NCBI GenBank assembly: GCA_042571085.1
Contig: JBHPGB010000001.1
Location: forward strand, 3,190-67,189
Source: Patescibacteria group bacterium
GTDB lineage: Bacteria; Patescibacteriota; Minisyncoccia; Phycocordibacterales; JBHPGB01
Direction: 5' to 3'
Length of the DNA: 64,000 nt
This document shows, in pieces, positions 6,051 through 56,440 of the stretch. How positions within the stretch are numbered: the stretch's first letter is position 1; each line of letters begins with the position of its first letter. The position numbers and the translations under genes are program-made. The notes below the pieces were generated by a model, which saw only the letters and a list, made by a program, of their open reading frames with translations, did not search any database and was not told the DNA's origin.

Positions 6051-6162
6051 ATTTCCAAAATTGACGCGGAGCTTTGTTGGCTTCCTCGAAATAATACTCA
6101 CAGTACTCTTGTACAGCTCGTGTCATTTCTTGTTGCCGCCTCGCTCCACATTCAATTTGTGC
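6051..6162 (+). repeat. Copy 1 of conserved about 100-nt intergenic element (TCGAAATAATACTCACAGTAC...GTACAGCTC...GCCTCCTCG) in S10 leader position
   Basis: About 75-80% identity to copies at 9526-9627 and 18884-18996; flanking 7-nt stem covaries between copies. Confidence 0.7.
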
Positions 6163-6252
6163 AAATTTCAACGCCAATTCAAACCGTCGTGGTTTAAAAA
6201 AGTAAATTACCAGTTGTCGCTAAACCCAAGGGGTATAGGTAAATAAACATTT

Positions 6253-6594
6253 ATGGCTACAAAAAAAACTACAAAAAAAGGAGATGAGACACCAAAATTG
6301 CGTATTCGCGTAGGTGCATATGAGCACAAAGTGCTTGATGCATCTGTAAAGCAGATCATTGATACTGCTATGCGCTTAGACGCACAAATTATTGGTCCAG
6401 TCCCTCTTCCTACAGAGAAAAAGAAATATACCGTCAACCGCTCTTCATTTGTCTACAAAGACGCGCGAGAGCAGTTTGAAATGAGGATTCATAAGCGATT
6501 GATTGATATTTTGAACCCTACTCCAAAGATTGTGGAGGCGTTGACTAACCTCAACCTCCCATCAGGAGTTAACGTGGATGTTAAGATGAGCTAA
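6253..6594 (+). CDS. rpsJ: Ribosomal protein S10
   Basis: 113 aa, canonical S10 sequence ([13 protein letters not shown]...). Confidence 0.95.
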
Positions 6595-6608
6595 TTATTT
6601 AAGCATTA

Positions 6609-6656
6609 CACACAAAACAAAAGCGTCGGCTTCGCCGACGCTTTTGTTTTGTGTGT
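6609..6656 (+). terminator. Very stable hairpin/terminator after rpsJ (22-bp perfect stem, UUCG tetraloop)
   Basis: CACACAAAACAAAAGCGTCGGC-ttcg-GCCGACGCTTTTGTTTTGTGTG. Confidence 0.7.
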
Positions 6657-6660
6657 AAAA

Positions 6661-6722
6661 ACTAATCGGCTCACTCGCAGTGAGTCGATTAATATGTTGA
6701 AGAATAAGGGTAAAAAAATCGC
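6661..6722 (+). repeat. Member of CGGCTCA-palindrome repeat family (variant copy)
   Basis: AATCGGCTCActcgcagTGAGtCGATTAATAtgTTGAAGAATAaGGGT; compare 34471-34532 and 36393-36454. Confidence 0.6.
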
Positions 6723-6766
6723 ACTGGAGTAAGTCGGCAGGGGTAAATTAAATTAGGTGTGGGGGC

Positions 6767-6795
6767 TTGCACCAATTCAGCTTATGGTGTAATAT
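6767..6795 (+). promoter_or_regulatory. Sigma70-like promoter candidate for rplC (S10 separated from L3 by terminator + promoter)
   Basis: TTGCAC (6767-6772), 17-nt spacer, TAATAT (6790-6795). Confidence 0.5.
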
Positions 6796-6867
6796 GGTGG
6801 ACATTAAACAAGCGAATGGCTTACGTGAACAGATACGAAGCCAGTACGCTGTCTTTATTTTTGTACT

Positions 6868-7479
6868 ATGAAAAAGTTTATCTTAGGAACAAAAGAAGAA
6901 ATGACACAAATTTTTACCGAAGACGGTAAAGTTATTCCTGCTACAGTAGTAAATGCTGGGCCGGTTAAAGTTACTCAGGTAAAAAGCACTGACGGAAAAG
7001 ACGGATACGAAGCAGTACAGGTTGGATTTGGTTCAAAGAAAGAAAAGAGTATAAATAAGGCCGAAAGAGGTCATATGGGAAATGATGATAATTTCAGCGA
7101 TTTAGTAGAGTTTCGTACTGAAGGGTCAGAACTTAAGAAAGGAGACGAAATCACAGCTGACATTTTTGAAGAAGGAGATGACGTACAAGTAAGCGGAATC
7201 AGTAAGGGTAAAGGTTTCCAAGGTGTTGTTAAGCGTCATGGATTTCACGGAGGACCACGAAGTCACGGTCAGAAGCACTCAGAGCGTGAGCCAGGATCAA
7301 TTGGTGCTACGGGACCGCAAAGAGTATTCAAAGGTAAACGAATGGGCGGCAGAATGGGATCAGACAGAGTTACTGTTAAAGGATTGAAGATTGTGGGAGT
7401 AGATAAAGAAAATAATAAGCTTTTGATATCAGGAGCTGTACCAGGAAAGCGTGGAACACTACTTGAAATTCGCGGATAA
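6868..7479 (+). CDS. rplC: Ribosomal protein L3
   Basis: 203 aa; L3 signature around GKGFQGVVKRHGF. Confidence 0.95.
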   Translation: MKKFILGTKEEMTQIFTEDGKVIPATVVNAGPVKVTQVKSTDGKDGYEAVQVGFGSKKEKSINKAERGHMGNDDNFSDLVEFRTEGSELKKGDEITADIFEEGDDVQVSGISKGKGFQGVVKRHGFHGGPRSHGQKHSEREPGSIGATGPQRVFKGKRMGGRMGSDRVTVKGLKIVGVDKENNKLLISGAVPGKRGTLLEIRG

Positions 7480-28278: not shown

Positions 28279-28785
28279 TTACTTGCTCTTCTCTAATATT
28301 ACGGTTAGACCCTTTGGGCTCTTCTTCGGACCATCAGCTATTTTATAGTTTTCGGTTATAAGTACCAAAAGTCTATCCATACGCTCTTTAAGAAAATCTT
28401 GCTTCATGTATTTAGCACGTCCTGCAAGGAAAAGATCAAGTTTGATACGGTGTCCTTCCTTAAGCCACTTAGAAGCATTCTTTGCCTTCAGGTTAAGGTC
28501 GTGTTCCCCAGTACCAATTTTTACCTGTAGTACTTTTGTTTCCGTTACACTTGCTTTTGCCTTAGTTTCCTTTTGCTTTTTCTTCTGATCGTACTGAAAT
28601 TTTCCGTAATCGGTAATTTTAACAATCGGCGGCTTAGCATTTGGCGATATTTCAATAAGATCAAGCCCGTCAGCTTGTGCTTTGCTTATGGCCTCTCTTG
28701 TTGGCATTGTGCCGAGATTTTCCCCGTCGTCATTCAATACGCGTACTTCAGCGGCCCTTATTTGATTGTTTATTCTTACTTTCAA
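28279..28785 (-). CDS. infC: Translation initiation factor IF-3
   Basis: 168 aa; N and C domains of IF3. Confidence 0.92.
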   Translation of the reverse strand: MKVRINNQIRAAEVRVLNDDGENLGTMPTREAISKAQADGLDLIEISPNAKPPIVKITDYGKFQYDQKKKQKETKAKASVTETKVLQVKIGTGEHDLNLKAKNASKWLKEGHRIKLDLFLAGRAKYMKQDFLKERMDRLLVLITENYKIADGPKKSPKGLTVILEKSK

Positions 28786-28894
28786 AATACTTTAAAAAAT
28801 CCCGATTTCGGGATAATGGTGATATATTACAGGAGTTATGCAAATAAGTCAAATTCATGACAGGGTCATATAATATAGACTTTTTGACTATAAT

Positions 28895-29353
28895 ATGCGA
28901 TTATTTGAGCAGTTTGATCCCTTAAGCAGCCAAGGAGATATCATGGATATATTCACTCTAATTATTTTGTGGGTAGTAATAGGCATTCTTGTGGGTAAAT
29001 ATAGATGGGAACTTGCCTATGGTGTGGATTTTAAAAATTTGAAATTAGGTGATCGTTTTTTGCTTTCGATAAATTGGCCAGTCACGTATGTTGTGTGCGG
29101 CCCGGATATTTCGTGGTTTATCAGACATCCTAAAAAGCCATCACTTGCTTTTGATTGTTTTTCTGATGAAGATGCATTTATCAAAACATTTGAGACTAAA
29201 TATGGATATTGTGCAGCCATGATGTTTTGGGGGTTTCCTTGTTTCATATTTTCAACTACTGTCTTTGTGCTTGGTTGCATCTTAAGGATTATGTATGAAA
29301 TGTTAGTACCTGTTTATAAAATATGCATGTGGTGCATTAAATGCATCATATAG
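28895..29353 (+). CDS. Hypothetical membrane protein (Cys-rich C-terminus)
   Basis: 152 aa; 3-4 TM; ...CMWCIKCII. Confidence 0.45.
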   Translation: MRLFEQFDPLSSQGDIMDIFTLIILWVVIGILVGKYRWELAYGVDFKNLKLGDRFLLSINWPVTYVVCGPDISWFIRHPKKPSLAFDCFSDEDAFIKTFETKYGYCAAMMFWGFPCFIFSTTVFVLGCILRIMYEMLVPVYKICMWCIKCII

Positions 29354-29409
29354 TAATAATGATGAATATGTTGTATTGTTAATACTGCTCGGGATGAGCA
29401 GTATTTTTT

Positions 29410-30246
29410 ATGGAAAAAGTCAAATTAAATCAGTATATAGCTCAGGCCACTGGCATGTCCCGTAGGGAGGCCAGTGAGGAGATAAAAGCTGGGAAAATCA
29501 AGATAAATGGGCGCAAAGCTCTTTTTTGGGAGGAAATTGACCCTAAAGAGGACAGTATTCTATACCAAGGCAAGAAAATCACCTTACCAGAGCATACTAC
29601 TACAATTATCCTAAATAAGCCTGTTGGGTATGTAACAACCCGAGATGATGAATTTGGAAGGGATATCGTGATGGATTTGTTGCCAGAAAATTTACAATAC
29701 CTAAAACCGGTTGGCCGACTTGATGCGGATAGTGAAGGTCTGCTTATCCTCACTGATGACGGAGATAAGATATATGAATGGACACATCCAAAATTTGAAC
29801 ACGAAAAAGAATACGTCTTAACGCTCAAAAAACCAATTACCGAAGAATTGCTGCAAAAATTTATAAAGGGTGTGAAGCTACAGGAGGGAATTGCCGTGGC
29901 TGACTATGTAGAGCCTATCTGGAAATCTCATTCCGGCTCTATGTCTCCAAATTTTGCTCGGAAACTCGTAAAAAATTCTTCAAAATATCCCGATATTCCT
30001 CAGAAATTTTTTACTTCGTCCCGAACCAAATTTGAAAACATATCCTCGAAAGCAGATTCCCAGACAGGCTCTGAAAAGATCAGTACAAAAGAATTAAACA
30101 TAGTGATCCACCAAGGATGGAAGAGGCAACTGCGCCGCATGGCAGAAAAATGCGGGAATGAAGTGACAAAACTAAAGCGTATTCGTATGGGAGACATTAC
30201 TCTAGATGACTTGCCAAGTGGTGAGTGGAAGAAGGTTGATTTGTAA
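29410..30246 (+). CDS. S4-domain pseudouridine synthase (RsuA/RluB family) with C-terminal extension
   Basis: S4 RNA-binding N-terminus; GRLDADSEGLLILTDDG catalytic motif. Confidence 0.85.
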   Translation: MEKVKLNQYIAQATGMSRREASEEIKAGKIKINGRKALFWEEIDPKEDSILYQGKKITLPEHTTTIILNKPVGYVTTRDDEFGRDIVMDLLPENLQYLKPVGRLDADSEGLLILTDDGDKIYEWTHPKFEHEKEYVLTLKKPITEELLQKFIKGVKLQEGIAVADYVEPIWKSHSGSMSPNFARKLVKNSSKYPDIPQKFFTSSRTKFENISSKADSQTGSEKISTKELNIVIHQGWKRQLRRMAEKCGNEVTKLKRIRMGDITLDDLPSGEWKKVDL

Positions 30247-30323
30247 TGTCTCGTTGATATAAATTATTTTTGGTGTATAAATATCTTAACAAATCATTTT
30301 TATAATAATTTAATAACACCTCT

Positions 30324-33300
30324 ATGAAGAATAAAATATTTAGCAAGGGTCTCTATTTCTTAATTTTTACGGCAATTTTTGCTGTTTTGCCTTTATCTGC
30401 TTCAGCTGCAACATATGTGAGCGGCACAATTTCCACCGATACCGTTTGGACTGCTTCAAGTAGTCCGTATGTGGTGCAGGGTATTGTTGCTTTGGATCAA
30501 TACAGAACTCTTACAATAGAACCTGGTGTGGTTGTTAAATTTGATACTGGCGCATTGTTGCATGCACACGGTACACTTAACGCTCAAGGTACCACAGAAG
30601 ACAAAATATATTTCACCTCAATCAAAGACGACAGTATCGGTGGCGACACAAATGGAGATGGAGATGCTTCAGTGGCAGCGCCTGGTGATTGGGGTTTTTT
30701 AAATATTTCTACCTATCTGCCACGCAGTCCCCTTTCTTCCATTAAAAATATAGTGGTTCGATATGGTGGAGGTGTTGATTATAATACTACCGGTGCAGCG
30801 GTTATAATTTCTGATTCCGGGCTAGAGTCTATAGATAATTCTGAATTTGCATACAATAAAGTTGGACTTTACAACGAGTATGACAGTGTTGAGATAACTA
30901 ATAGTAATTTTCATCACAATGAAATCGGTGTGTATTCAGCTCCAAGACATCGTGGTTGGGGTGCGACAAGAATACTTACTTTTAATAACAACACAATTTC
31001 TGACAACTCATTATACGGGGTAGATATAGGATATTACAAGCCAACTTACGGTGTTGTGTCCAGTAGTTTTGATTTTAATAATAATATTTTCACAAATAAT
31101 CCAACAGCTTTGCGTGTGTATAGTAATACTATATTATCTCATTCAAACAATTCTGCTTCTGGTGGTGATAAAAATGGAATATTAATTGGTGATGGAATAC
31201 ATCCAAATACAAATTGGAATGCCGATAATATTCCATATATTATTGATGGTAATATTTATTATCGCGGTGGTACTCTTACCATTGATCCTGGAACTGTAAT
31301 TAAATTTACTTCTCCCGAATCTATTTTAGATATACATGCTCGTGTTTTTCTTCATATAAATGGAACTCAAGATGAACCAGTTTATTTTACTTCTATCAAA
31401 GACGATAGTGTCGGTGGCGACACAAATGGAGATGGGTCTGCTTCAGTACCAGCAGCAGGTGACTGGGGATATGTTTCTATAGGAGAGGGATCTTCTAATA
31501 TAGGTTTGGATATAAATTATATGAAAGTGCGCTATGGAGGTGGCTCTTTTTTCCGAAATAATATTTACCCTGCTCTAGCCCTGTCTTTTAATTGGTATCA
31601 ATATACTTTAGTTAAAGATTATTACTTGGAAAACATTGAAGTTTCAAATAGTAAATCTGGTCTCTATGTGCATTCTGTTAAACACAGATTTCATCTTTCA
31701 AACAGTAGTATCCACGATAATGAAGACTATGGGCTGTATGCATATACATATTTTAGATACGGACCTAACGGAGAAGTAGATGCACAAAATAACTGGTGGG
31801 GAGATGCTTCAGGGCCATATCAAGTGGATCAAAATCCTTCTGGTCTTGGAAATGAAATTTCTGGTGATGTCCCAACAAATGCATCATTTGATCCATGGCT
31901 TACAGAGGATCCGCTTGTTTCAACACCAACATGCTGTTCTAGTGTGGTGTTTTTGCCAGGTTTGGAAGCAAGTCGTTTGTACCGACCTGGGTTAACGCTA
32001 TTTTCAGAAGACCAATTATGGTATCCGAATACCACAAACGATATACAAAACCTCTCACTCTCTACAACCACTGGTGAGAGTATTGATCCAAATGTTTACA
32101 CGCGTGATGTGCTTGATGAGGTTGCTGGGACAGTAAATATATACAAAGGCTTTTTGTCTGATATGAATAAGCTTGTAGATTCTGGAACAATAGCGCAATT
32201 TGAACCTATGCCATACGATTGGCGTAAAGATCAGAAAGATGTTGCAATGCAACCTGTTGTGATTGGAAGAAATGGAGAAAGTTATTCAATGGTACAAAAG
32301 ATTGAAGAATTGGCGTCGACATCACAAACAGGAAAAGTTACGATCATAACACACAGTAACGGAGGGTTAGTTGCAAAAGAGCTTATTGAATTACTTCGTA
32401 AGGCTGGAAAGAGTTCTTTGGTGGAACAGCTTATTATGGTAGCAGCACCAGAATTAGGAACACCAAAAGCGGTTTTGTTAATGTTGCATGGAGAAAATCT
32501 TACTGGGCCACCTGATTATGTAAACACTCGTGAACTCGGAGAAAATATGAAAAGTGCGTACACCCTCCTGCCTTCCAGTGCGTATTTTGATCCGAGTAGA
32601 ACAGGATTATTACCTAGTCAAAATATTATAGAATTTAGTACTACAACTTCCGCAACGCAATATTTCCGCGATTTGTATGGAGAGAGTATTTCAGATTACG
32701 ATACATTACGAAAGTTCTTGCTTGGGGACAATGGATTGCGTATCGAGCCTATAGCGAGTGCAGTCAGTGAGCCAAATGTTCTGAAAGAAAATTTCTTGGA
32801 GAATGCTGAAACTCGCCACAGTTTTCAAGATACATGGACTCCTCCTGAAGATATTAAAGTAACAGAGATTGTTGGATGGGGCCTTGATACTGTGAATGGA
32901 ATTCGTTATGATGCAACACAAAAAACCATATGTAATGAAGACAAGTCTGTATGCACCAAACAAGATATTATTGATCCGCAACCATTAGTTACTGTAAATG
33001 GAGACGGAACGGTTGTGCATTTGTCGGCAGAGGCGACAGAAGGAGCGGATAGGTATTGGGTTGATATAAGCGAGTATAATGCAGGACCAAAAGTTAATCG
33101 TGATCATAAAAATATTCTAGAAGTTAAACCCTTAATTGCTCTTTTGTCTACTCTTGTTAAAAATGATGAGGTTACAATTCTGCCTGATGACTATATAAAA
33201 TCAGATCAGCCACAACTTTCTGATGCAGAGTCACGATTGCGCATCGGTGTTCATTCACCTGTAACGCTACATCTTTATGACAACTATGGTCGTCACACAG

Positions 33301-33959
33301 GACCAGCTGTAAATCCAGATCCAGACTCAGATCTTCCATTTGTAGAAGAGCAGATTCCAAATACTTACTATTGGAATATTGGAGAAGGTCAGTATGCAGG
33401 TGTTGGTGTAGACACAATAACTACAATAAAATTAACAGGGAAAAAACTCGGCACATTTACTGTTGATATTGATGAGGTTGTTGGTGATGAGTCTGTATCC
33501 ACAAACATATTTGCTAATATACCAACTACTGAAAATACTATCGCACATATTGCAGTGGGTGAAACAGTACATACACCAGTACTTCTGGTTGATATAGATG
33601 GTGATGATAATAATGATGTAGAAATCAACCCTAATGAAGAAGTGTCTGACACAGACTATCTTGTACTTTTGCGCGGCGTCATAACAACAATGGATTTGTC
33701 AGAGAAAAAAGAGGAAAAGCTTATTAAAGCAATAGATCGTATTCTTAAGTCTGTTGAGAAAGAAGAAAAGTGTGTAAACAAAAAAGAAGAAAATGCACAA
33801 AAGAAGTGTGATATACATTTTGATCATAAGTTTGGAAAAAGGTTTGACTACTTTGTAAAAATAATTGAAAAATTTGAAGAACGAGAAATATTGTCTGATA
33901 TCGAAGCGAGAGAACTAATTGATGTTATTGGTAAAATTGAGGGTGAGATGGTAATATAA
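30324..33959 (+). CDS. Giant secreted multidomain protein: duplicated N-terminal module, right-handed beta-helix (NosD-like) repeats, central LCAT/PGAP1-like alpha/beta-hydrolase (lipase/acyltransferase) domain, coiled-coil C-terminal tail
   Basis: Signal peptide; repeat YFTSIKDDS(I/V)GGDTNGDG.ASV.A.GDWG twice; CCSSVVFLPGLEASRLYRP and ITHSNGG lipase-like nucleophile; C-terminus ELIDVIGKIEGEMVI. Confidence 0.65.
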   Translation: MKNKIFSKGLYFLIFTAIFAVLPLSASAATYVSGTISTDTVWTASSSPYVVQGIVALDQYRTLTIEPGVVVKFDTGALLHAHGTLNAQGTTEDKIYFTSIKDDSIGGDTNGDGDASVAAPGDWGFLNISTYLPRSPLSSIKNIVVRYGGGVDYNTTGAAVIISDSGLESIDNSEFAYNKVGLYNEYDSVEITNSNFHHNEIGVYSAPRHRGWGATRILTFNNNTISDNSLYGVDIGYYKPTYGVVSSSFDFNNNIFTNNPTALRVYSNTILSHSNNSASGGDKNGILIGDGIHPNTNWNADNIPYIIDGNIYYRGGTLTIDPGTVIKFTSPESILDIHARVFLHINGTQDEPVYFTSIKDDSVGGDTNGDGSASVPAAGDWGYVSIGEGSSNIGLDINYMKVRYGGGSFFRNNIYPALALSFNWYQYTLVKDYYLENIEVSNSKSGLYVHSVKHRFHLSNSSIHDNEDYGLYAYTYFRYGPNGEVDAQNNWWGDASGPYQVDQNPSGLGNEISGDVPTNASFDPWLTEDPLVSTPTCCSSVVFLPGLEASRLYRPGLTLFSEDQLWYPNTTNDIQNLSLSTTTGESIDPNVYTRDVLDEVAGTVNIYKGFLSDMNKLVDSGTIAQFEPMPYDWRKDQKDVAMQPVVIGRNGESYSMVQKIEELASTSQTGKVTIITHSNGGLVAKELIELLRKAGKSSLVEQLIMVAAPELGTPKAVLLMLHGENLTGPPDYVNTRELGENMKSAYTLLPSSAYFDPSRTGLLPSQNIIEFSTTTSATQYFRDLYGESISDYDTLRKFLLGDNGLRIEPIASAVSEPNVLKENFLENAETRHSFQDTWTPPEDIKVTEIVGWGLDTVNGIRYDATQKTICNEDKSVCTKQDIIDPQPLVTVNGDGTVVHLSAEATEGADRYWVDISEYNAGPKVNRDHKNILEVKPLIALLSTLVKNDEVTILPDDYIKSDQPQLSDAESRLRIGVHSPVTLHLYDNYGRHTGPAVNPDPDSDLPFVEEQIPNTYYWNIGEGQYAGVGVDTITTIKLTGKKLGTFTVDIDEVVGDESVSTNIFANIPTTENTIAHIAVGETVHTPVLLVDIDGDDNNDVEINPNEEVSDTDYLVLLRGVITTMDLSEKKEEKLIKAIDRILKSVEKEEKCVNKKEENAQKKCDIHFDHKFGKRFDYFVKIIEKFEEREILSDIEARELIDVIGKIEGEMVI

Positions 33960-33963
33960 ATGT

Positions 33964-34410
33964 ATGTTGAATCATAAAAAAGTCGCAATATTTTTGTTTA
34001 CAGCAACCGTCATTATAAATTATATTGTCTATTTAATCTGGGAACCTCCATACGATAGTTTGTGCGGTGGTGGAATTCATGAAAATAGAGATTGTGTTAA
34101 TTTAATAAACAACTTAAGCGAACCTGTTTTTTGGTCTTTTCTAGCACTTCTTCCAGTTACTATAGCTCTTTTCTTCCTACGTCGTGAAGTATTTGTGGCT
34201 TGGGTAAAGTTTGCAGCTATTGGATTTCCTATAATGCTTGCAGGACTTCTCTATACATTCAACATGCCACAATCTACAGGATCATTTATGGGAGGTCCAT
34301 CAGAATCAGAAATTGCATCTGTTGTTCTTCCAGGCCTCTTCCTCATTATCTCCCTCTTAATCATCGCAATAAAATCTTGGAAGTTGAGGAAAATGAATGG
34401 TGCTGAATAA
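33964..34410 (+). CDS. Small 4-TM membrane protein, paralog A (C-terminal 27 aa identical to paralog B)
   Basis: ...GLFLIISLLIIAIKSWKLRKMNGAE; followed by the same terminator as paralog B. Confidence 0.6.
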   Translation: MLNHKKVAIFLFTATVIINYIVYLIWEPPYDSLCGGGIHENRDCVNLINNLSEPVFWSFLALLPVTIALFFLRREVFVAWVKFAAIGFPIMLAGLLYTFNMPQSTGSFMGGPSESEIASVVLPGLFLIISLLIIAIKSWKLRKMNGAE

Positions 34411-34470
34411 ATATAAAATACAACAAAAAACCGCCCTCAAGCGGTTTTTTTATACCCACAGGGCACAGGT

Positions 34471-34532
34471 ATAAATTAATCGGCTCAACCGGGTTGAGCC
34501 GATTAATAGTTTGAAGAATATGGGTTTTTTGA
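34471..34532. repeat. 62-bp repeat containing perfect palindrome ATTAATCGGCTCAACCGGGTTGAGCCGATTAAT
   Basis: Near-identical copy at 36393-36454; variant at 6661-6722. Confidence 0.75.
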
Positions 34533-34553
34533 CACTCAAATATCACAGGCCAA

Positions 34554-34796
34554 ATGGATATTCAACACGGACTTAAAACAGATATACAAGAAAAATTAAA
34601 AATTGCTCAAAAGGAATTCAGTAAAGAAAAACAAGATAATGCTATTAAGAAGCTTGATGATACAATAAGAAAACTAGAGGATGAAGTTCATCAAAATATT
34701 AAGCGTACTGAAAAAGAGAAAAAGATAAAAATATCAACAGAAGATGCACAAAAATTGATTGATATTATTGTGAAAATAATAGATGGAATGGTATAA
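34554..34796 (+). CDS. Small coiled-coil protein sharing C-terminal motif with the giant secreted protein
   Basis: 80 aa; C-terminus KLIDIIVKIIDGMV vs giant protein ELIDVIGKIEGEMVI. Confidence 0.55.
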   Translation: MDIQHGLKTDIQEKLKIAQKEFSKEKQDNAIKKLDDTIRKLEDEVHQNIKRTEKEKKIKISTEDAQKLIDIIVKIIDGMV

Positions 34797-34804
34797 TAAA
34801 AGTA

Positions 34805-35212
34805 ATGTATAAAAGAAATATTATAAAATACCTTGAGATATCTTTTGTTGGAATTATTCTTAGTCTAATATTGTTAAATGCACCAGAAATTGGTTTTTGT
34901 GTTAATTGTTACGGTTTGGCAGATGTTGGGCAGCCTTTAAGTTTGTTGTTTTTGTCACTCGTTGTTATTTTTACGTTTTTGTTTTTCGCAAAGAAGATGG
35001 TTTTCACAACATGGAAAAAGTTTGCAATTCCATACCTCATATTTTCCACGATCATTCTTCTAATACCATCTGGTGGCATGGGTGGATTTATGGGGGGAGG
35101 GCCTGACAATGAATTTTTTGCAATAATACTTTCTGGTCTCTTCCTCATAATCTCCCTCCTAATCATCGCGATAAAATCTTGGAAGTTGAGGAAAATGAAT
35201 GGTGCTGAATAA
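34805..35212 (+). CDS. Small 4-TM membrane protein, paralog B
   Basis: Same architecture and identical C-terminal 27 aa plus identical terminator (AAAAAACCGCCCTCAAGCGGTTTTTT) as 33964..34410. Confidence 0.6.
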   Translation: MYKRNIIKYLEISFVGIILSLILLNAPEIGFCVNCYGLADVGQPLSLLFLSLVVIFTFLFFAKKMVFTTWKKFAIPYLIFSTIILLIPSGGMGGFMGGGPDNEFFAIILSGLFLIISLLIIAIKSWKLRKMNGAE

Positions 35213-35265
35213 ATACAAAACTCAACAACAAAAAACCGCCCTCAAGCGGTTTTTTGTTGTTGGAA

Positions 35266-35373: not shown

Positions 35374-35703
35374 ATGAAAAAAACTGATTTGGAAAAATTG
35401 AGAAGTGGGCCTAGTAGCAGAGTCCGTGAAAGTGCTGGTACGAATGCTTTTGTAGTAACTGAAAAACTTGGGCTACACGAAGCAACCGTTCAAAGAACCT
35501 TAAGAATAATGAACCCGCTTGAATGGTTGGCCAACGGCAAACCATTCGACAAGATTGGTGATTTAAGGAGTGGTGACACTCTTAAACATGTAACTTTCGG
35601 TAGTACTTTTGTAGTAGAAGAAGTTGGTGAAATTTCTGCTTTCTCTGTAGAAACAAAAACTATCAATCTCAACAATTTTGATCAATGGGATATTATTTCT
35701 TAA
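35374..35703 (+). CDS. Hypothetical small protein (cassette 1)
   Basis: 109 aa; own promoter module and terminator (GGCCGTTCGCTTGAACGGCC plus T-run). Confidence 0.5.
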   Translation: MKKTDLEKLRSGPSSRVRESAGTNAFVVTEKLGLHEATVQRTLRIMNPLEWLANGKPFDKIGDLRSGDTLKHVTFGSTFVVEEVGEISAFSVETKTINLNNFDQWDIIS

Positions 35704-35995: not shown

Positions 35996-36322
35996 ATGAG
36001 CTACAAGGCAAGAGCTACTACCGACGGAAAAGGTATGCGTCCGATATGCGGAGGATTATTTCGTACGGATCTTAAAGCTCAATCTTTAGGGCAGGCTGGA
36101 GTAGACATTTGGTCGATTGATATTACTCTTTACTCAACCATATTGGTTAAGTTACTCAATCAAGATAAATTTAATCTGTTGGCCAGTCGGCTAATAAATG
36201 TTGAGGGGTACCACCCAAATACTGAAGTGATGGCTGGTCATAAACCAAGTCTTACTGCCATTGAAATTGGCGATAAAAAATATCGTGCGCGTGGGAATAC
36301 TATTTATGAAAAAAAAGTATAA
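35996..36322 (+). CDS. Hypothetical small protein (cassette 2)
   Basis: 108 aa; no similarity to cassette 1 protein. Confidence 0.5.
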   Translation: MSYKARATTDGKGMRPICGGLFRTDLKAQSLGQAGVDIWSIDITLYSTILVKLLNQDKFNLLASRLINVEGYHPNTEVMAGHKPSLTAIEIGDKKYRARGNTIYEKKV

Positions 36323-36392
36323 AGGCTCACGTTGCAAATGGCCCTGCTTGAGTTTAAGTAGGGCTATTCTTTTTATAAACTTGCTTTTTTAT

Positions 36393-36454
36393 ATAAATTA
36401 ATCGGCTCAACCGGGTTGAGCCGATTAATAGATTCGAGAATATGGGTTTTTTGA
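36393..36454. repeat. 62-bp palindrome-containing repeat, second copy
   Basis: ATAAATTAATCGGCTCAACCGGGTTGAGCCGATTAATAGaTTcGAgAATATGGGTTTTTTGA. Confidence 0.75.
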
Positions 36455-37836: not shown

Positions 37837-38865
<1,029 letters not shown>

Positions 38866-39071: not shown

Positions 39072-40226
39072 ATGACTAAATTAAAACAATTTTTTACTGC
39101 TACACTTGCCGTTGCAGTACTTATGCCAGTCTTGGCATTTGGTGCCACTATTGAAGCAGGCGAGGAGGTTTTTATAAAAAAGGGTGAAAATATCAGAGAT
39201 AATGTATATGCTGCTGGCGGGAATGTTTCTGTGAGCAGTGCCGTATTTGGTGATTTGCTTACTGCTGGCGGTAATATTCTAATTTCAGAAAATGTGTCTG
39301 AAGATATCGCGGCGGCTGGTGGCGCTATTACAATTCTAGGTGATAGCAATGGAGATGTGCGTGTTGCCGGTGGGAACGTTTTGATTGCTGGTGATGTTGC
39401 TGGTGATTTGATTGTGGCTGGTGGTACCGTTACTGTTTCTTCTGATGTTTCTATCGGAAAAGATTTGGTGCTTGCTGGTGGACAGGTTTTATTTGATGGG
39501 AATGTTGCCGGAGATGCGCAGATTGCCGGAGGAATTGTGACTCTAAACGGTCACATAAAAGGAAATGTAAAAGCAGATATTGATGAGAAATTAACAATAG
39601 GTGACAGTGCTGTAATTGATGGAACTTTGGAATACGGCGCACGAAGTGAAGAAGTATTGGTCATTAGTGACAACGCAACAATAACAGGAGAGATCACATT
39701 TAAAGAAATGGAAAGAGTGAACACGGAAGGTGTGAAAAATTTTGTATTTGCAGCTGTTGGCGCTTTTGTACTCTTCAAACTAATTTCGTTCATTGTTGTA
39801 GCACTTATACTTGTGCTGCTCTTTAGAAATTTCTCAAATAAGGTTGTTGAGAAAGCCGTGCGTAAGCCACTCAAAATGCTCGGGAAAGGATTTGCAGTGC
39901 TCGTGCTCGTGCCCGTTGCGTCAGCAATACTATTTGCAACATTATTTGGCGCACCTCTTGCTTTAATAGCTTTGTCTATATATGGATTACTTCTAATTCT
40001 TTCTAGTATATACGGCGGTGTTGTTGTTGGAGCATGGCTTGCTGGTCTAATAAGTAAATCAGATCGTGTAAAAATAACATGGCAGAATGTAATTGGAGGT
40101 ATGTTTTTAATTACAGTGGTGAAATTCATACCGCTTATCGGATGGATTGCATGCCTGCTTGTGCTTTTGGTTACACTTGGAAGTATTTCACACATAGCGA
40201 GTAAAAAAATGTGGGGAGATAGATAA
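39072..40226 (+). CDS. Membrane protein with N-terminal extracytoplasmic bactofilin-like beta-helical repeats and C-terminal multi-TM region
   Basis: Signal peptide; repeats (D/N)VxxAGG(N/T)VxIxG; C-terminal 4 TM helices. Confidence 0.55.
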   Translation: MTKLKQFFTATLAVAVLMPVLAFGATIEAGEEVFIKKGENIRDNVYAAGGNVSVSSAVFGDLLTAGGNILISENVSEDIAAAGGAITILGDSNGDVRVAGGNVLIAGDVAGDLIVAGGTVTVSSDVSIGKDLVLAGGQVLFDGNVAGDAQIAGGIVTLNGHIKGNVKADIDEKLTIGDSAVIDGTLEYGARSEEVLVISDNATITGEITFKEMERVNTEGVKNFVFAAVGAFVLFKLISFIVVALILVLLFRNFSNKVVEKAVRKPLKMLGKGFAVLVLVPVASAILFATLFGAPLALIALSIYGLLLILSSIYGGVVVGAWLAGLISKSDRVKITWQNVIGGMFLITVVKFIPLIGWIACLLVLLVTLGSISHIASKKMWGDR

Positions 40227-47074: not shown

Positions 47075-47160
47075 TTCGATTCTCCCCATCTCTCACAAAC
47101 GCAAACGCCGCCAAAGCAATGCTTTGGCGGCGGCGTTTTGTGGAGATGGGGAGAATCGAA
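47075..47160. repeat. About 85-bp near-perfect palindrome built from inverted copies of the tmRNA T-arm/acceptor (TTCGATTCTCCCCATCTC) around an 11-bp GC hairpin
   Basis: Left arm 47075-47117, loop AAT, right arm 47121-47160; inner GCCGCCAAAGC/GCTTTGGCGGC. Confidence 0.65.
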
Positions 47161-47685
47161 CTCCCGTGCAAATAATGCTTCTGAATGAGTCTACAAAGGT
47201 TAGTACACTTTGGTTTGTTTAGAAGAGTGAGCTAAAAAGTGAACAAAATTTCTCACACCTCGATTCTCTATGTTTCGGTATTGTATCGAGAAATAATACT
47301 CTTTCCGATTAAATACTTCTTAAGAAAACCTCAGAATTTTAGACGAGACAAAGTAAAAAATATAAAGAATATCCTTAGATATTTTGAATATTTTTTGCAA
47401 AGTCGTAGTCAAAATTATGGTGTTTTCAAGGAGTAGTTAATCGGAAAGGGTATAAAACAAGACCTAGTCTGAAAAATATTACACTCAGATTTCACCTATC
47501 AAACTTTAGTGAACTGAACGCCGGCTTAGGCTAAAGCGTAAGCTGGAGAAGCAAAGTATGGGCTAACCATTGCTTTTGCTTTTTGTGACAAGTTTGCACT
47601 TATCGTGTGTAGCCTTTTGAATAGTTACTACAGCTATCCTTCGCACATGCAAAAGGGAAATCATCTGTCGATACCGATCACCCCC
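47141..47685 (-). ncRNA. ssrA: tmRNA (ssrA) candidate, unusually long (about 545 nt) with about 200-nt AT-rich insertion before the T-arm
   Basis: 5' GGGGGUGAUCGGUAUCGACAG (tmRNA 5' consensus), acceptor pairing GGGGGUG/CAUCUCC with G3-U wobble, tag ORF ending ...ASPAYALA-UAA, 3' GGGAG-UUCGAUU-CUCCC T-arm; adjacent to smpB. Confidence 0.6.
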
Positions 47686-50627: not shown

Positions 50628-50700
50628 GCGCGTATAGCTCAGTTGGTAGAGCGCAGAGCTTATACCTCTGTGGTCCTAGGTTCAAGTCCTAGTGCGCGCA
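50628..50700 (+). tRNA. tRNA with anticodon UAU (tRNA-Ile decoding AUA by anticodon; 73 nt, no encoded CCA)
   Basis: Cloverleaf: acceptor GCGCGTA/TGCGCGC, D-arm GCTC-AGTTGGTA-GAGC, anticodon stem CAGAG/CTCTG loop CTTATAC, T-arm CTAGG-TTCAAGT-CCTAG. Confidence 0.85.
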
Positions 50701-56353: not shown

Positions 56354-56440
56354 CGGAGAGTGAGGGATTCGAACCCTCGGTCCGTTTTCACGAACACATC
56401 CTTAGCAGGGATGCGCTTTCGACCACTCAGCCAACTCTCC
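56354..56440 (-). tRNA. tRNA-Ser (anticodon GCU), class II with long variable arm
   Basis: GGAGAGT-TG-GCT-GAGTGGTCGAA-AGC-G-CATCC-CTGCTAA-GGATG-TGTTCGTGAAAACGGACC-GAGGG-TTCGAAT-CCCTC-ACTCTCC-G. Confidence 0.88.

Follow-up and report, generated by a model that had tools for sequence, protein, structure and literature searches.

A candidate secreted LCAT-like hydrolase fused to beta-helix modules is replaced between strains together with a small membrane-protein gene in Patescibacteria

A stretch of 64,000 nucleotides from an ultrasmall, host-dependent Patescibacteria group bacterium (assembly GCA_042571085.1, contig JBHPGB010000001.1, positions 3,190 to 67,189; hereafter the window) contains at 30324..33959 a gene for a protein of 1211 residues in which duplicated beta-helix modules precede an alpha/beta hydrolase related to LPLA2 (PLA2G15) and LCAT, a beta-sandwich and a helical tail. 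Directly downstream lies a gene for a small protein with four transmembrane segments (4-TM). Comparison with a close relative shows that the enzyme end has been replaced wholesale, and that the tail and 4-TM partner of the other allele persist downstream as an orphan. We hold with moderate confidence that the protein is a surface phospholipase A or acyltransferase presented on a constant stalk and exchangeable in the manner of a polymorphic effector, with a cognate membrane partner that probably confers immunity. The strongest pointers to function are the downstream 4-TM partner, the orphan of tail plus partner and the strain-level replacement of the enzyme end. Coordinates below are those of the window, and genes and domains lie on its forward strand unless marked otherwise.

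The open reading frame (ORF) is complete and begins with ATG, exactly as initially annotated, and an identical protein is deposited at NCBI as 'right-handed parallel beta-helix repeat-containing protein [Patescibacteria group bacterium]' (P0001); an NCBIfam search with it gave no match. Residues 1-28 (MKNKIFSKGLYFLIFTAIFAVLPLSASA, then A; 30324..30407) show the n-, h- and c-regions typical of a Sec signal peptide, with cleavage predicted between ASA and A and without a lipobox, an assignment read directly from the sequence rather than taken from predictor output. The AlphaFold model has a helix at residues 5-20, and a hydrophobic stretch is present within the first 40 residues of 113 of 120 homologues. 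The protein has no C-terminal anchor, and a hydrophobic one was found in none of the 73 homologues that do not match the tail profile described below. The signal-peptide-like N-terminus and the missing anchor support the initial annotation of the protein as secreted. Its six cysteines fall into three close pairs, at the junction between beta-helix and enzyme (537/538), in a hairpin of the hydrolase (870/877) and in the tail (1150/1162); such pairs would fit disulfide bonds in an exported protein.

The hydrolase occupies residues 540-950 (31941..33173), as judged from Pfam, invariant alignment columns, profile alignment, Foldseek and the structural model. The Pfam LCAT family (PF02450), which most homologues carry, matches residues 627-904 with 59.9 bits against a cut-off of 21 (E 3.4e-16), spanning model positions 88-358 of 392. 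Four motifs stand out: FLPG at the oxyanion loop, PYDWR at 630-634, ITHSNGG at 675-681 and NGDGTV, which includes Asp894. Conservation was assessed by aligning 70 sequences whose identity to the enzyme end of the 1211-residue protein is 30-52%. Invariant in all 70 are His677-Ser678-x-Gly-Gly, Tyr-Asp-Trp-Arg (631-634), Gly893-Asp894, His928 and the F-x-P-G of the first strand. The corresponding codons are 32355-32357 for Ser678 (in THSNGG), 33003-33005 for Asp894 (in NGDGTV) and 33105-33107 for His928. With a profile made from the same alignment, Ser678 pairs with the serine in AHSMG of LPLA2 (Ser165), and Asp894 with the second Asp of its GDGDGTV, which is Asp327 by count of chain positions; the LPLA2 triad is Ser165/Asp327/His359 (PMC6027918). 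The spacing from Asp to His is 34 residues here (Asp894 to His928) and 32 in LPLA2. Across a wider set, 80 of 89 enzyme ends retain both the Ser and the Asp motif. Triad conservation had been put forward in the initial annotation as the check on its lipase assignment; given that Ser678, Asp894 and His928 are invariant in the 70 sequences, the hydrolase looks catalytically competent.

The fold agrees with this assignment. An AlphaFold model of residues 540-1211, built with the 70 sequences, has a predicted local distance difference test score (pLDDT) of 92.3 and a predicted template-modelling score (pTM) of 0.91, and is made up of the alpha/beta hydrolase to about residue 950, a beta-sandwich at 970-1101 and a helical tail at 1109-1210. 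Foldseek places LPLA2 first (E 3e-13; TM-score 0.64-0.66 on the target), then LCAT (about 3e-9), Tle4 (3.7e-8) and BlEst2 (3e-6), with ranks 1-13 taken entirely by LPLA2, LCAT or Tle4. A single-sequence search of the PDB produced marginal hits only, and a profile was needed to reach the best match, Tle4 (4r1d_A; E 1.5e-6). The domain carries insertions of about 60 residues before PYDWR and of 216 residues between Ser678 and Asp894, positions that correspond to those of the lidded cap and the membrane-binding domain in LPLA2 and LCAT and make the insertions candidate counterparts. The PGAP1-like label in the initial annotation did not survive, since Pfam PF07819 scores 19.5 bits against a cut-off of 24.3 and covers the nucleophile-elbow segment alone (residues 656-714). 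PGAP1, Palm_thioest, DUF900 and DUF676 were all rejected as families because they fall below their cut-offs and cover only that elbow; DUF7379 and other alpha/beta-hydrolase families of Pfam likewise scored under theirs. No further hydrolase paralogue was found in the window.

After the hydrolase comes the beta-sandwich (residues 970-1101; 33231..33626), whose strands span model positions 431-562, most blocks having a pLDDT above 90. This part had been called a long variable region, whereas residues from about 960 to 1105 are in fact conserved in 106 of the 120 best homologues and confidently modelled. The K/E-rich helical tail (tail A, residues 1109-1211; 33648..33956) has its helices at model positions 570-671. 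It had been described as a coiled coil: the helical character holds, but in the model residues 1109-1210 form a compact bundle, with three long helices after a short one, rather than an extended coiled coil. A hidden Markov model (HMM) of the tail matches 47 of 120 homologues, in 43 cases at the very C-terminus, and the tail is sometimes doubled; some homologues without it have different beta-rich modules in its place. The tails of some homologues exceed the cut-off of the Pfam family FIMAH (PF22888; 24.8 bits), as does that of P0012 at 30.5 bits; the orphan tail B described below reaches 20.0 bits, and tail A gives no match at E<=10.

The closest homologue of the window protein, P0002, is encoded on a contig (L080) of the related assembly GCA_042577165.1, which we compared with the window by blastn. 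Identity between the two proteins is 100% for residues 1-540 and drops to about 37% beyond them, with no DNA match in the second part, and the break falls exactly at 'TPTCCS' followed by 'S/N-VVFLPG'. In the window this junction ('CCSS', then VVFLPGLEASRLY; 31932..31981) reads CCSSVVFLPG at residues 537-546, and the DNA identity of 98% to the related genome stops at 31981, so that both blastn and the protein identity profile mark it as the left recombination breakpoint. L080 shares gene order with the window, with IF-3, a pseudouridine synthase and the lipase, its partner having 135 residues. L080 1-345 corresponds to window 28511-28855 in the IF-3 flank (97.4% DNA identity), L080 327-831 to window 29408-29912 in the pseudouridine synthase (94.7%), and L080 830-2738 to window 30073-31981, comprising the end of the synthase gene and the N-terminal half of the lipase (98.0%). 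The following 1690 bp of L080 (2739-4428), which encode hydrolase B and sandwich B, have no match in the window. Identity then resumes, at 99.7%, between L080 4429-5103 and window 34551-35225, which carry tail B and partner B. Where L080 has hydrolase B and sandwich B, the window has cassette A (31982..34550), consisting of hydrolase, sandwich, tail A, partner A, a terminator and a palindromic element.

Immediately after cassette A lie orphan tail B (34554..34796), an 80-residue ORF without a signal peptide that is identical to the last 80 residues of P0002, and partner B (34805..35212), a 135-residue 4-TM paralogue 46% identical to partner A. The orphan tail scores 55.6 bits against the tail HMM, compared with a maximum of 9.3 in 500 shuffles. 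The last 127 nt or so of the partner B gene, together with its terminator, are 92% identical in DNA to their partner A equivalents. The segment 34554..35212 is the displaced orphan, tail plus partner, of the B allele. Simple decay of a tandem duplicate was considered as its origin and rejected: a relative has, at this very locus, a live allele with 99.7% identity to the orphan, which argues for replacement rather than slow decay.

A 63-nt palindromic repeat (34470..34532) abuts the orphan tail, and a second copy, 95% identical to the first, bounds the orphan island on the other side (36392..36454). Each copy contains the 27-nt near-perfect palindrome AATCGGCTCAACCGGGTTGAGCCGATT (at 34478 and 36400), which is found nowhere else in the window, and the two enclose the island; the repeat could function as a site of recombination, as an operator or as a terminator. 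Besides the orphan cassette, the island holds two ORFs without annotation, of 109 (35374..35703) and 108 residues (35996..36322), neither with a Pfam match. The matching stretch of the related genome, on its second contig (L081 921-1370), has an unrelated ORF of 149 residues instead, so this stretch also looks variable. L081 itself has an A-like tail at the contig edge (85% amino acid identity), followed by an A-like partner that is 75% identical to partner A and has the same last 100 residues. Beyond these come an unrelated gene, the palindromic element (at about 1431-1500, again before an orphan tail), a third stand-alone tail that matches tail B over its first 34 codons, and a third type of partner.

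Partner A (33964..34410), a membrane protein of 148 residues with four hydrophobic segments and two cysteines in loop 1, starts 4 nt after the lipase stop codon. No terminator was found between the two genes, which are taken to be co-transcribed; a hairpin terminator follows partner A (34425..34450) and a second copy lies at 35223..35262. Positive-inside charges and the Cys pair in the first loop (residues ~34 and 44) point to an N-in/C-in topology in which two short loops face outside, the first of them variable. The pairing of lipase and partner is widespread. A homologous small membrane-protein gene lies directly downstream in all eight homologue loci that were looked up, where the lipases are 32-65% identical to the 1211-residue protein over their full length. 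In a scan of species-representative genomes, 25 patescibacterial loci had a complete gene end; the partner HMM matched in 14 of them, and about four more had a small multi-TM ORF that it did not match. Gaps between lipase and partner run from -11 to +16 nt in the 14 matched loci, and from -11 to +27 nt when looked-up and scanned loci are combined. One genome has two lipase paralogues, the first directly followed by its partner and the second with a partner suggested by locus-tag numbering. Distant relatives outside Patescibacteria (Anaerolineaceae and others) are without a partner. Among partner alleles divergence is greatest in the N-terminal half, the last helix and the 3' DNA being almost identical. 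Neither partner A nor partner B matches the lipase-specific foldase (Lif) or lipase chaperone family in Pfam. The idea that the tail docks on the partner is weakened by homologues with other C-terminal modules that retain the partner, such as P0022 (locus L006), where the tail has been replaced. At another locus (L010) two tandem partner genes (6133-6567 and 6593-7009) follow the lipase with no tail ORF between them, so partner duplication recurs independently.

Mosaicism of the same kind is seen across the family when 89 homologues are split at the junction and the identity of their N-terminal regions is set against that of their enzyme ends. Similar N-terminal regions are joined to divergent enzyme ends in P0005/P0009 (97.5% vs 44%), P0008/P0009 (89% vs 44%), P0053/P0095 (86% vs 48%) and P0006/P0011 (99.8% vs 69%). 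The converse is found in P0012/P0025 (47.5% vs 82%), P0019/P0025 (49% vs 82%) and P0005/P0010 (47% vs 76%). The junction itself, a Pro-rich linker, Cys or Cys-Cys and V.F.PG..SRLY, is conserved, with a Cys at most 8 residues before V.F.PG in 77 of the 89, and could provide the homology for crossing over. Partners track the enzyme end in the window and L080, in P0005/P0009 (partners 34% identical) and in P0009/P0013 (68%).

The constant part of the protein consists of module 1 (residues 29-287; 30408..31184), supported by self-alignment, a Pfam Beta_helix match at residues 154-293 and an all-beta AlphaFold model, and module 2 (residues 288-536; 31185..31931), which self-alignment and the model identify as a diverged duplicate. 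Module 1 is made up of an N-terminal cap and an Asp-rich loop (YFTSIKDDSIGGDTNGDG, residues 96-113); module 2 has the motif at residues 354-371 and ends in an NNWWGD...PWL cap and the Pro-rich linker. The motif YFTSIKDDS[IV]GGDTNGDG is present twice, from residues 96 and 354. Self-alignment matches residues 36-229 to residues 292-496 (38% identity, E 1e-32), a duplication far beyond chance. Pfam Beta_helix (PF13229) scores 37.3 bits against a cut-off of 25.9. The model of residues 1-545, built with 50 sequences (pLDDT 86.5, pTM 0.86), is all-beta after the signal helix, and its fold matches in the PDB, though weak (E 4e-3 or higher), are all right-handed beta-helix proteins: alginate epimerases, phage tailspikes and depolymerases, PL6 lyases, pertactin and NosD. 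The duplicated N-terminal modules, right-handed beta-helix and LCAT-like hydrolase of the initial annotation are all borne out. The module serves as a general building block of secreted patescibacterial proteins, and its copy number varies from 0 to 6 per homologue. Two further observations concern it. In P0030 and P0105 a matrixin-type metalloprotease takes the place of the lipase in fusions with modules that have the Asp-rich GGDxNxD loop, and P0135-P0153, proteins of 3000-7700 residues, have 10-15 copies.

The architecture had been thought unusual, which it is not: more than 1770 homologues were found among 8000 candidates scored, several hundred of them distinct and full-length. A profile search of the full library listed well over 100 representatives of 50%-identity clusters matching along the full enzyme end with scores above 900 bits. 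The raw totals from the representative library, 59,314 hits at E<=1e-3 and 9,286 at E<=1e-30, are used qualitatively only, as they are inflated by module-only proteins owing to the inclusion of the beta-helix module in the profile. Full-length matches in species-representative genomes belong to Nomura-, Kaiser-, Zambryski-, Moranii- and Falkowbacteria, Paceibacterota and Minisyncoccia, all lineages of the Parcubacteria type; outside these, such matches came only from unclassified 'bacterium' bins and one 2.9-kb contig assigned to Thermosynechococcus. At full length the family is essentially confined to Patescibacteria. Several homologue loci (L083 422-1987; L084 1112-1975 and 6570-8136; L004 6668-8633) adjoin mobile-element or defence-type genes, among them a serine recombinase with HTH_17; Fic, a methyltransferase and an MvaI/BcnI restriction pair; and SLFN/AlbA_2 with a ResIII/RE endonuclease. 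Such neighbours suggest that the family is often located in variable genomic islands.

These features can be brought together in a model of how the system may work. The protein would be exported by Sec to the cell surface, where its two tandem modules would form a right-handed beta-helix rod of about 500 residues, the constant part, probably serving as a stalk or as a binder of envelope glycans. The rod would bear the LCAT/LPLA2-type serine hydrolase (Ser678-Asp894-His928), followed by the beta-sandwich and helical tail. By analogy with LPLA2 and LCAT (PMC6027918), an acyl-Ser678 intermediate would be formed from a glycerophospholipid, and the acyl chain would then pass to water (phospholipase A) or to a lipid alcohol (transacylase). 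The target would be a membrane touched by the cell, most likely that of the host. With the 4-TM protein, whose gene starts 4 nt downstream, the enzyme end would form one exchangeable cassette, swapped by recombination at the junction of Pro-rich-CCS and V.F.PG, with the old tail and partner remaining downstream as an orphan. The 4-TM protein is envisaged as an allele-specific, membrane-embedded partner, most likely an immunity protein for the producer's own membrane and less likely a dock for the enzyme; an immunity-type role is preferred because the cassette behaviour is the genetic signature of polymorphic effector-immunity loci. A host-membrane or lipid-directed effector, as the initial annotation had it, is still plausible and is strengthened by the evidence of the cassettes.

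Several points weigh against this effector interpretation. His928 is matched to His359 of LPLA2 by its invariance and spacing rather than by a residue-level alignment. The structural matches of the N-terminal beta-helix are generic and weak, and that region might itself have an activity. The enzyme ends examined are LCAT-like throughout, not unrelated toxin folds. The partner has no meaningful Pfam family match, with no hit at E<=10, and resembles no known lipase immunity protein; in about a quarter of the loci in the genome scan no small membrane ORF was found within 200 nt of the lipase. Enzyme ends of P0005 and P0010 are 76% identical but their partners only 28%, one partner being truncated at a contig end; set beside the three pairs that do track, this makes co-inheritance of partner and enzyme end frequent, not absolute. 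The orphan retains the tail alone, without a catalytic domain. Finally, every sequence compared comes from a metagenome assembly.

A possible alternative, though one we would not call probable, is that the protein harvests lipid for nutrition, the surface enzyme stripping acyl chains or lysolipids from phospholipids of the host or the environment, to feed a cell unable to make lipids itself, and the 4-TM partner acting as a dock or acceptor that passes products into the symbiont membrane. Cassette diversity would then be an adaptation to differing host lipids or envelopes. This largely overlaps with the effector interpretation and departs from it in what the partner does and what the reaction is for. 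It accords with the dual activity of LPLA2 and LCAT, both transacylases as well as phospholipases (PMC6027918), and with the physiology of Patescibacteria, which lack lipid synthesis and for which no mechanism of lipid uptake or breakdown has been identified, lysolipids of neighbouring bacteria having been proposed as the source (PMC11665869). The very large size of the family and its near-confinement to Patescibacteria at full length are what would be expected of a core lifestyle function, and retention of the partner at the P0022 locus despite loss of the tail also fits. Wholesale replacement between strains whose flanks are 95-99.7% identical, and the presence of orphan partners, would on the other hand be unexpected for housekeeping salvage; several loci lie among mobile or defence-type genes, and the ten neighbouring genes scanned include none for lipid handling. 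The nutritional and effector readings are not mutually exclusive, but the former explains strain-level turnover of cassettes less well.

The two readings can be merged into a more ambitious one, which we regard as speculative and rather doubtful: a Patescibacteria-specific, polymorphic, contact-dependent phospholipase/acyltransferase, in which the stalk presents swappable LCAT-like cassettes to the host membrane alongside an allele-specific 4-TM immunity protein or acceptor. Acyl chains would be taken from the host, either destroying its membrane or being transacylated into the symbiont's lysolipids. Were this true, these lipid-auxotrophic bacteria would gain both their missing route of lipid acquisition and a determinant of host range or kin discrimination.

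It is unlikely that the enzyme is instead an esterase acting on a non-lipid polymer, such as an acylated envelope polysaccharide, the esters of peptidoglycan or teichoic acid, or a polyester, with the beta-helix binding glycan. The structural matches of the beta-helix are indeed all to polysaccharide epimerases, lyases, glycosidases and phage depolymerases, and among the weak fold matches of the hydrolase are the Xanthomonas cell-wall-degrading esterase LipA and the polyhydroxybutyrate depolymerase PhaZ7. Matches of the LipA/PhaZ7 type are, however, 9 to 12 orders of magnitude weaker than those to LPLA2/LCAT (E about 1e-2 vs 3e-13), the LCAT-family motifs PYDWR and GDGTV are invariant, and the beta-helix matches all lie above E 1e-3. 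Recurrence of the N-terminal modules in giant multi-repeat surface proteins, and the thought that the orphan could be plain decay of a duplicated operon, might favour a non-catalytic adhesin or structural protein that uses the hydrolase fold for binding, with partner and orphan incidental to tandem duplication and decay, but this is highly improbable when Ser, Asp, His and the oxyanion-loop motif are invariant across sequences only 30-50% identical, when both Ser and Asp motifs persist in 80 of 89 enzyme ends and when the orphan's 99.7% identity to the relative's live allele at the same locus indicates replacement rather than slow decay.

The surroundings of the locus in the window offer no functional clue: the ten genes adjoining the lipase are housekeeping or unannotatable, with no lipid-handling gene among them. 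Two differences from L080 lie upstream. A segment of about 550 bp (28856-29407) encoding a Cys-rich hydrophobic protein of 152 residues without a Pfam match (ORF 28895..29353) is absent from the 95-97% identical L080, and is therefore an insertion or deletion between IF-3 and the pseudouridine synthase. A further stretch of about 160 bp (29913-30072) in the 3' part of the synthase gene also lacks an L080 counterpart, the product having 278 residues in the window and 224 in L080. Elsewhere in the window, a ketol-acid reductoisomerase gene (IlvC; KARI_N E 3e-72; 37837..38859, reverse strand) occupies the most GC-rich stretch, at 0.449 against about 0.38 elsewhere; belonging to amino-acid biosynthesis, in a group described as lacking pathways of this kind, it is a possible horizontal acquisition. 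The window also contains a 384-residue ORF (39072..40226) with a sub-threshold bactofilin match (21.9 bits vs 27.9), a transfer-messenger RNA gene (47138-47685, reverse strand; 50.2 bits, Rfam cut-off 47) and two transfer RNA genes (50628-50700, forward; 56354-56440, reverse).

Patescibacteria (the Candidate Phyla Radiation) cannot make their own lipids, and the review that discusses this goes no further on phospholipases than to name them as proposed agents of damage to host envelopes (PMC11665869). Among the papers searched for LCAT or phospholipase in connection with Patescibacteria, none was found that treats this lipase family. The fold and chemistry, an LCAT-like lipase, and the polymorphic effector type of locus are known; the architecture, the membrane partner and the exchange of cassettes in this phylum appear to be undescribed. 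The family joins a secreted enzyme of the sole fold known both to cleave and to transfer phospholipid acyl chains with a conserved membrane partner, and its strain-level replacement shows enzyme end and partner to be subject to diversifying exchange like that of weapon and antidote systems. Its members are candidates for how epibionts breach, feed on or discriminate between host membranes, and alleles A and B, each with its cognate partner, provide a defined pair for the study of specificity.

Among characterised proteins, LPLA2 and LCAT give the best profile and fold matches. They share with the window protein the FxPG strand, PYDWR, the AHSxG nucleophile, the GDGTV aspartate, a histidine some 32-34 residues further on and a long insertion between Ser and Asp where LPLA2 has its cap. 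Sequence identity, though, is only 14-16%, and the window protein is bacterial and apparently Sec-secreted, has a 500-residue beta-helix, a beta-sandwich and a helical tail attached to the hydrolase, and comes with a 4-TM partner. Leu547, the hydrophobic residue that follows PG, stands where LPLA2 has Asp13 and LCAT has Cys31 (PMC6027918), taking the positions as equivalent by motif rather than by alignment. A C-terminal beta-sandwich packed on the catalytic domain of an alpha/beta hydrolase recalls BlEst2 of Bacillus licheniformis (PDB 6WPX) and EstA3 of Thermoanaerobacter, although the BlEst2 fold match (E 3e-6) comes with a weak superposition (TM 0.33) and neither enzyme has a beta-helix, helical tail or membrane partner. 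The EstA3 sandwich is needed for C12-C16 substrates, while the C-terminal domains of BlEst2 are described as inhibitory (PMC10816834).

For the pairing with a small protein, a comparison is offered by the GxSxG lipase Tle4 (with Tli4, PDB 4R1D; profile E 1.5e-6, fold E 3.7e-8). Tle4 is delivered by a type VI secretion system (T6SS), in contrast to the Sec signal peptide of the window protein. Tli4 is a soluble periplasmic protein, whereas the partner here is a small polytopic membrane protein without a Pfam match. The scan of ten neighbouring genes, which did not extend to T6SS genes elsewhere in the genome, turned up no T6SS or Tli4-type gene. The T6SS Tle lipases are used against neighbouring cells and are encoded beside a cognate protective (immunity) protein (PMC4832377). 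In its membrane topology the partner bears comparison, with no sequence relationship sought or found, to immunity proteins of the pore-forming colicins, likewise small polytopic membrane proteins encoded beside a membrane-directed toxin, although the toxin candidate here is an enzyme and not a pore former. Those colicin immunity proteins are inner-membrane proteins with 3-4 TM segments that act inside the membrane of the producer in an allele-specific manner. Toxins directed at distant targets usually lack immunity genes, and the likely target of the present system is a host of another species, which sets it apart from polymorphic toxin loci such as CdiA-CT/CdiI and Rhs. Polymorphic toxins are defined with a linked immunity gene (bioRxiv 10.1101/2025.01.14.632903). 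The window locus resembles such loci in its constant N-terminal repeat or filament, sharp conserved junction, divergent C-terminal module, small downstream gene that often changes with the module, orphan 3' fragments with the small gene, and conserved short flanking sequences. It differs in that one enzyme family supplies all the modules, the exchange takes in a large block of about 670 residues, the orphans are tail-only, export appears to be by Sec alone and the putative immunity protein is integral to the membrane. In view of the single enzyme family, tail-only orphans, Sec export and a membrane partner that belongs to no known family, we have filed the system neither as a polymorphic toxin nor as a member of the T6SS lipases.

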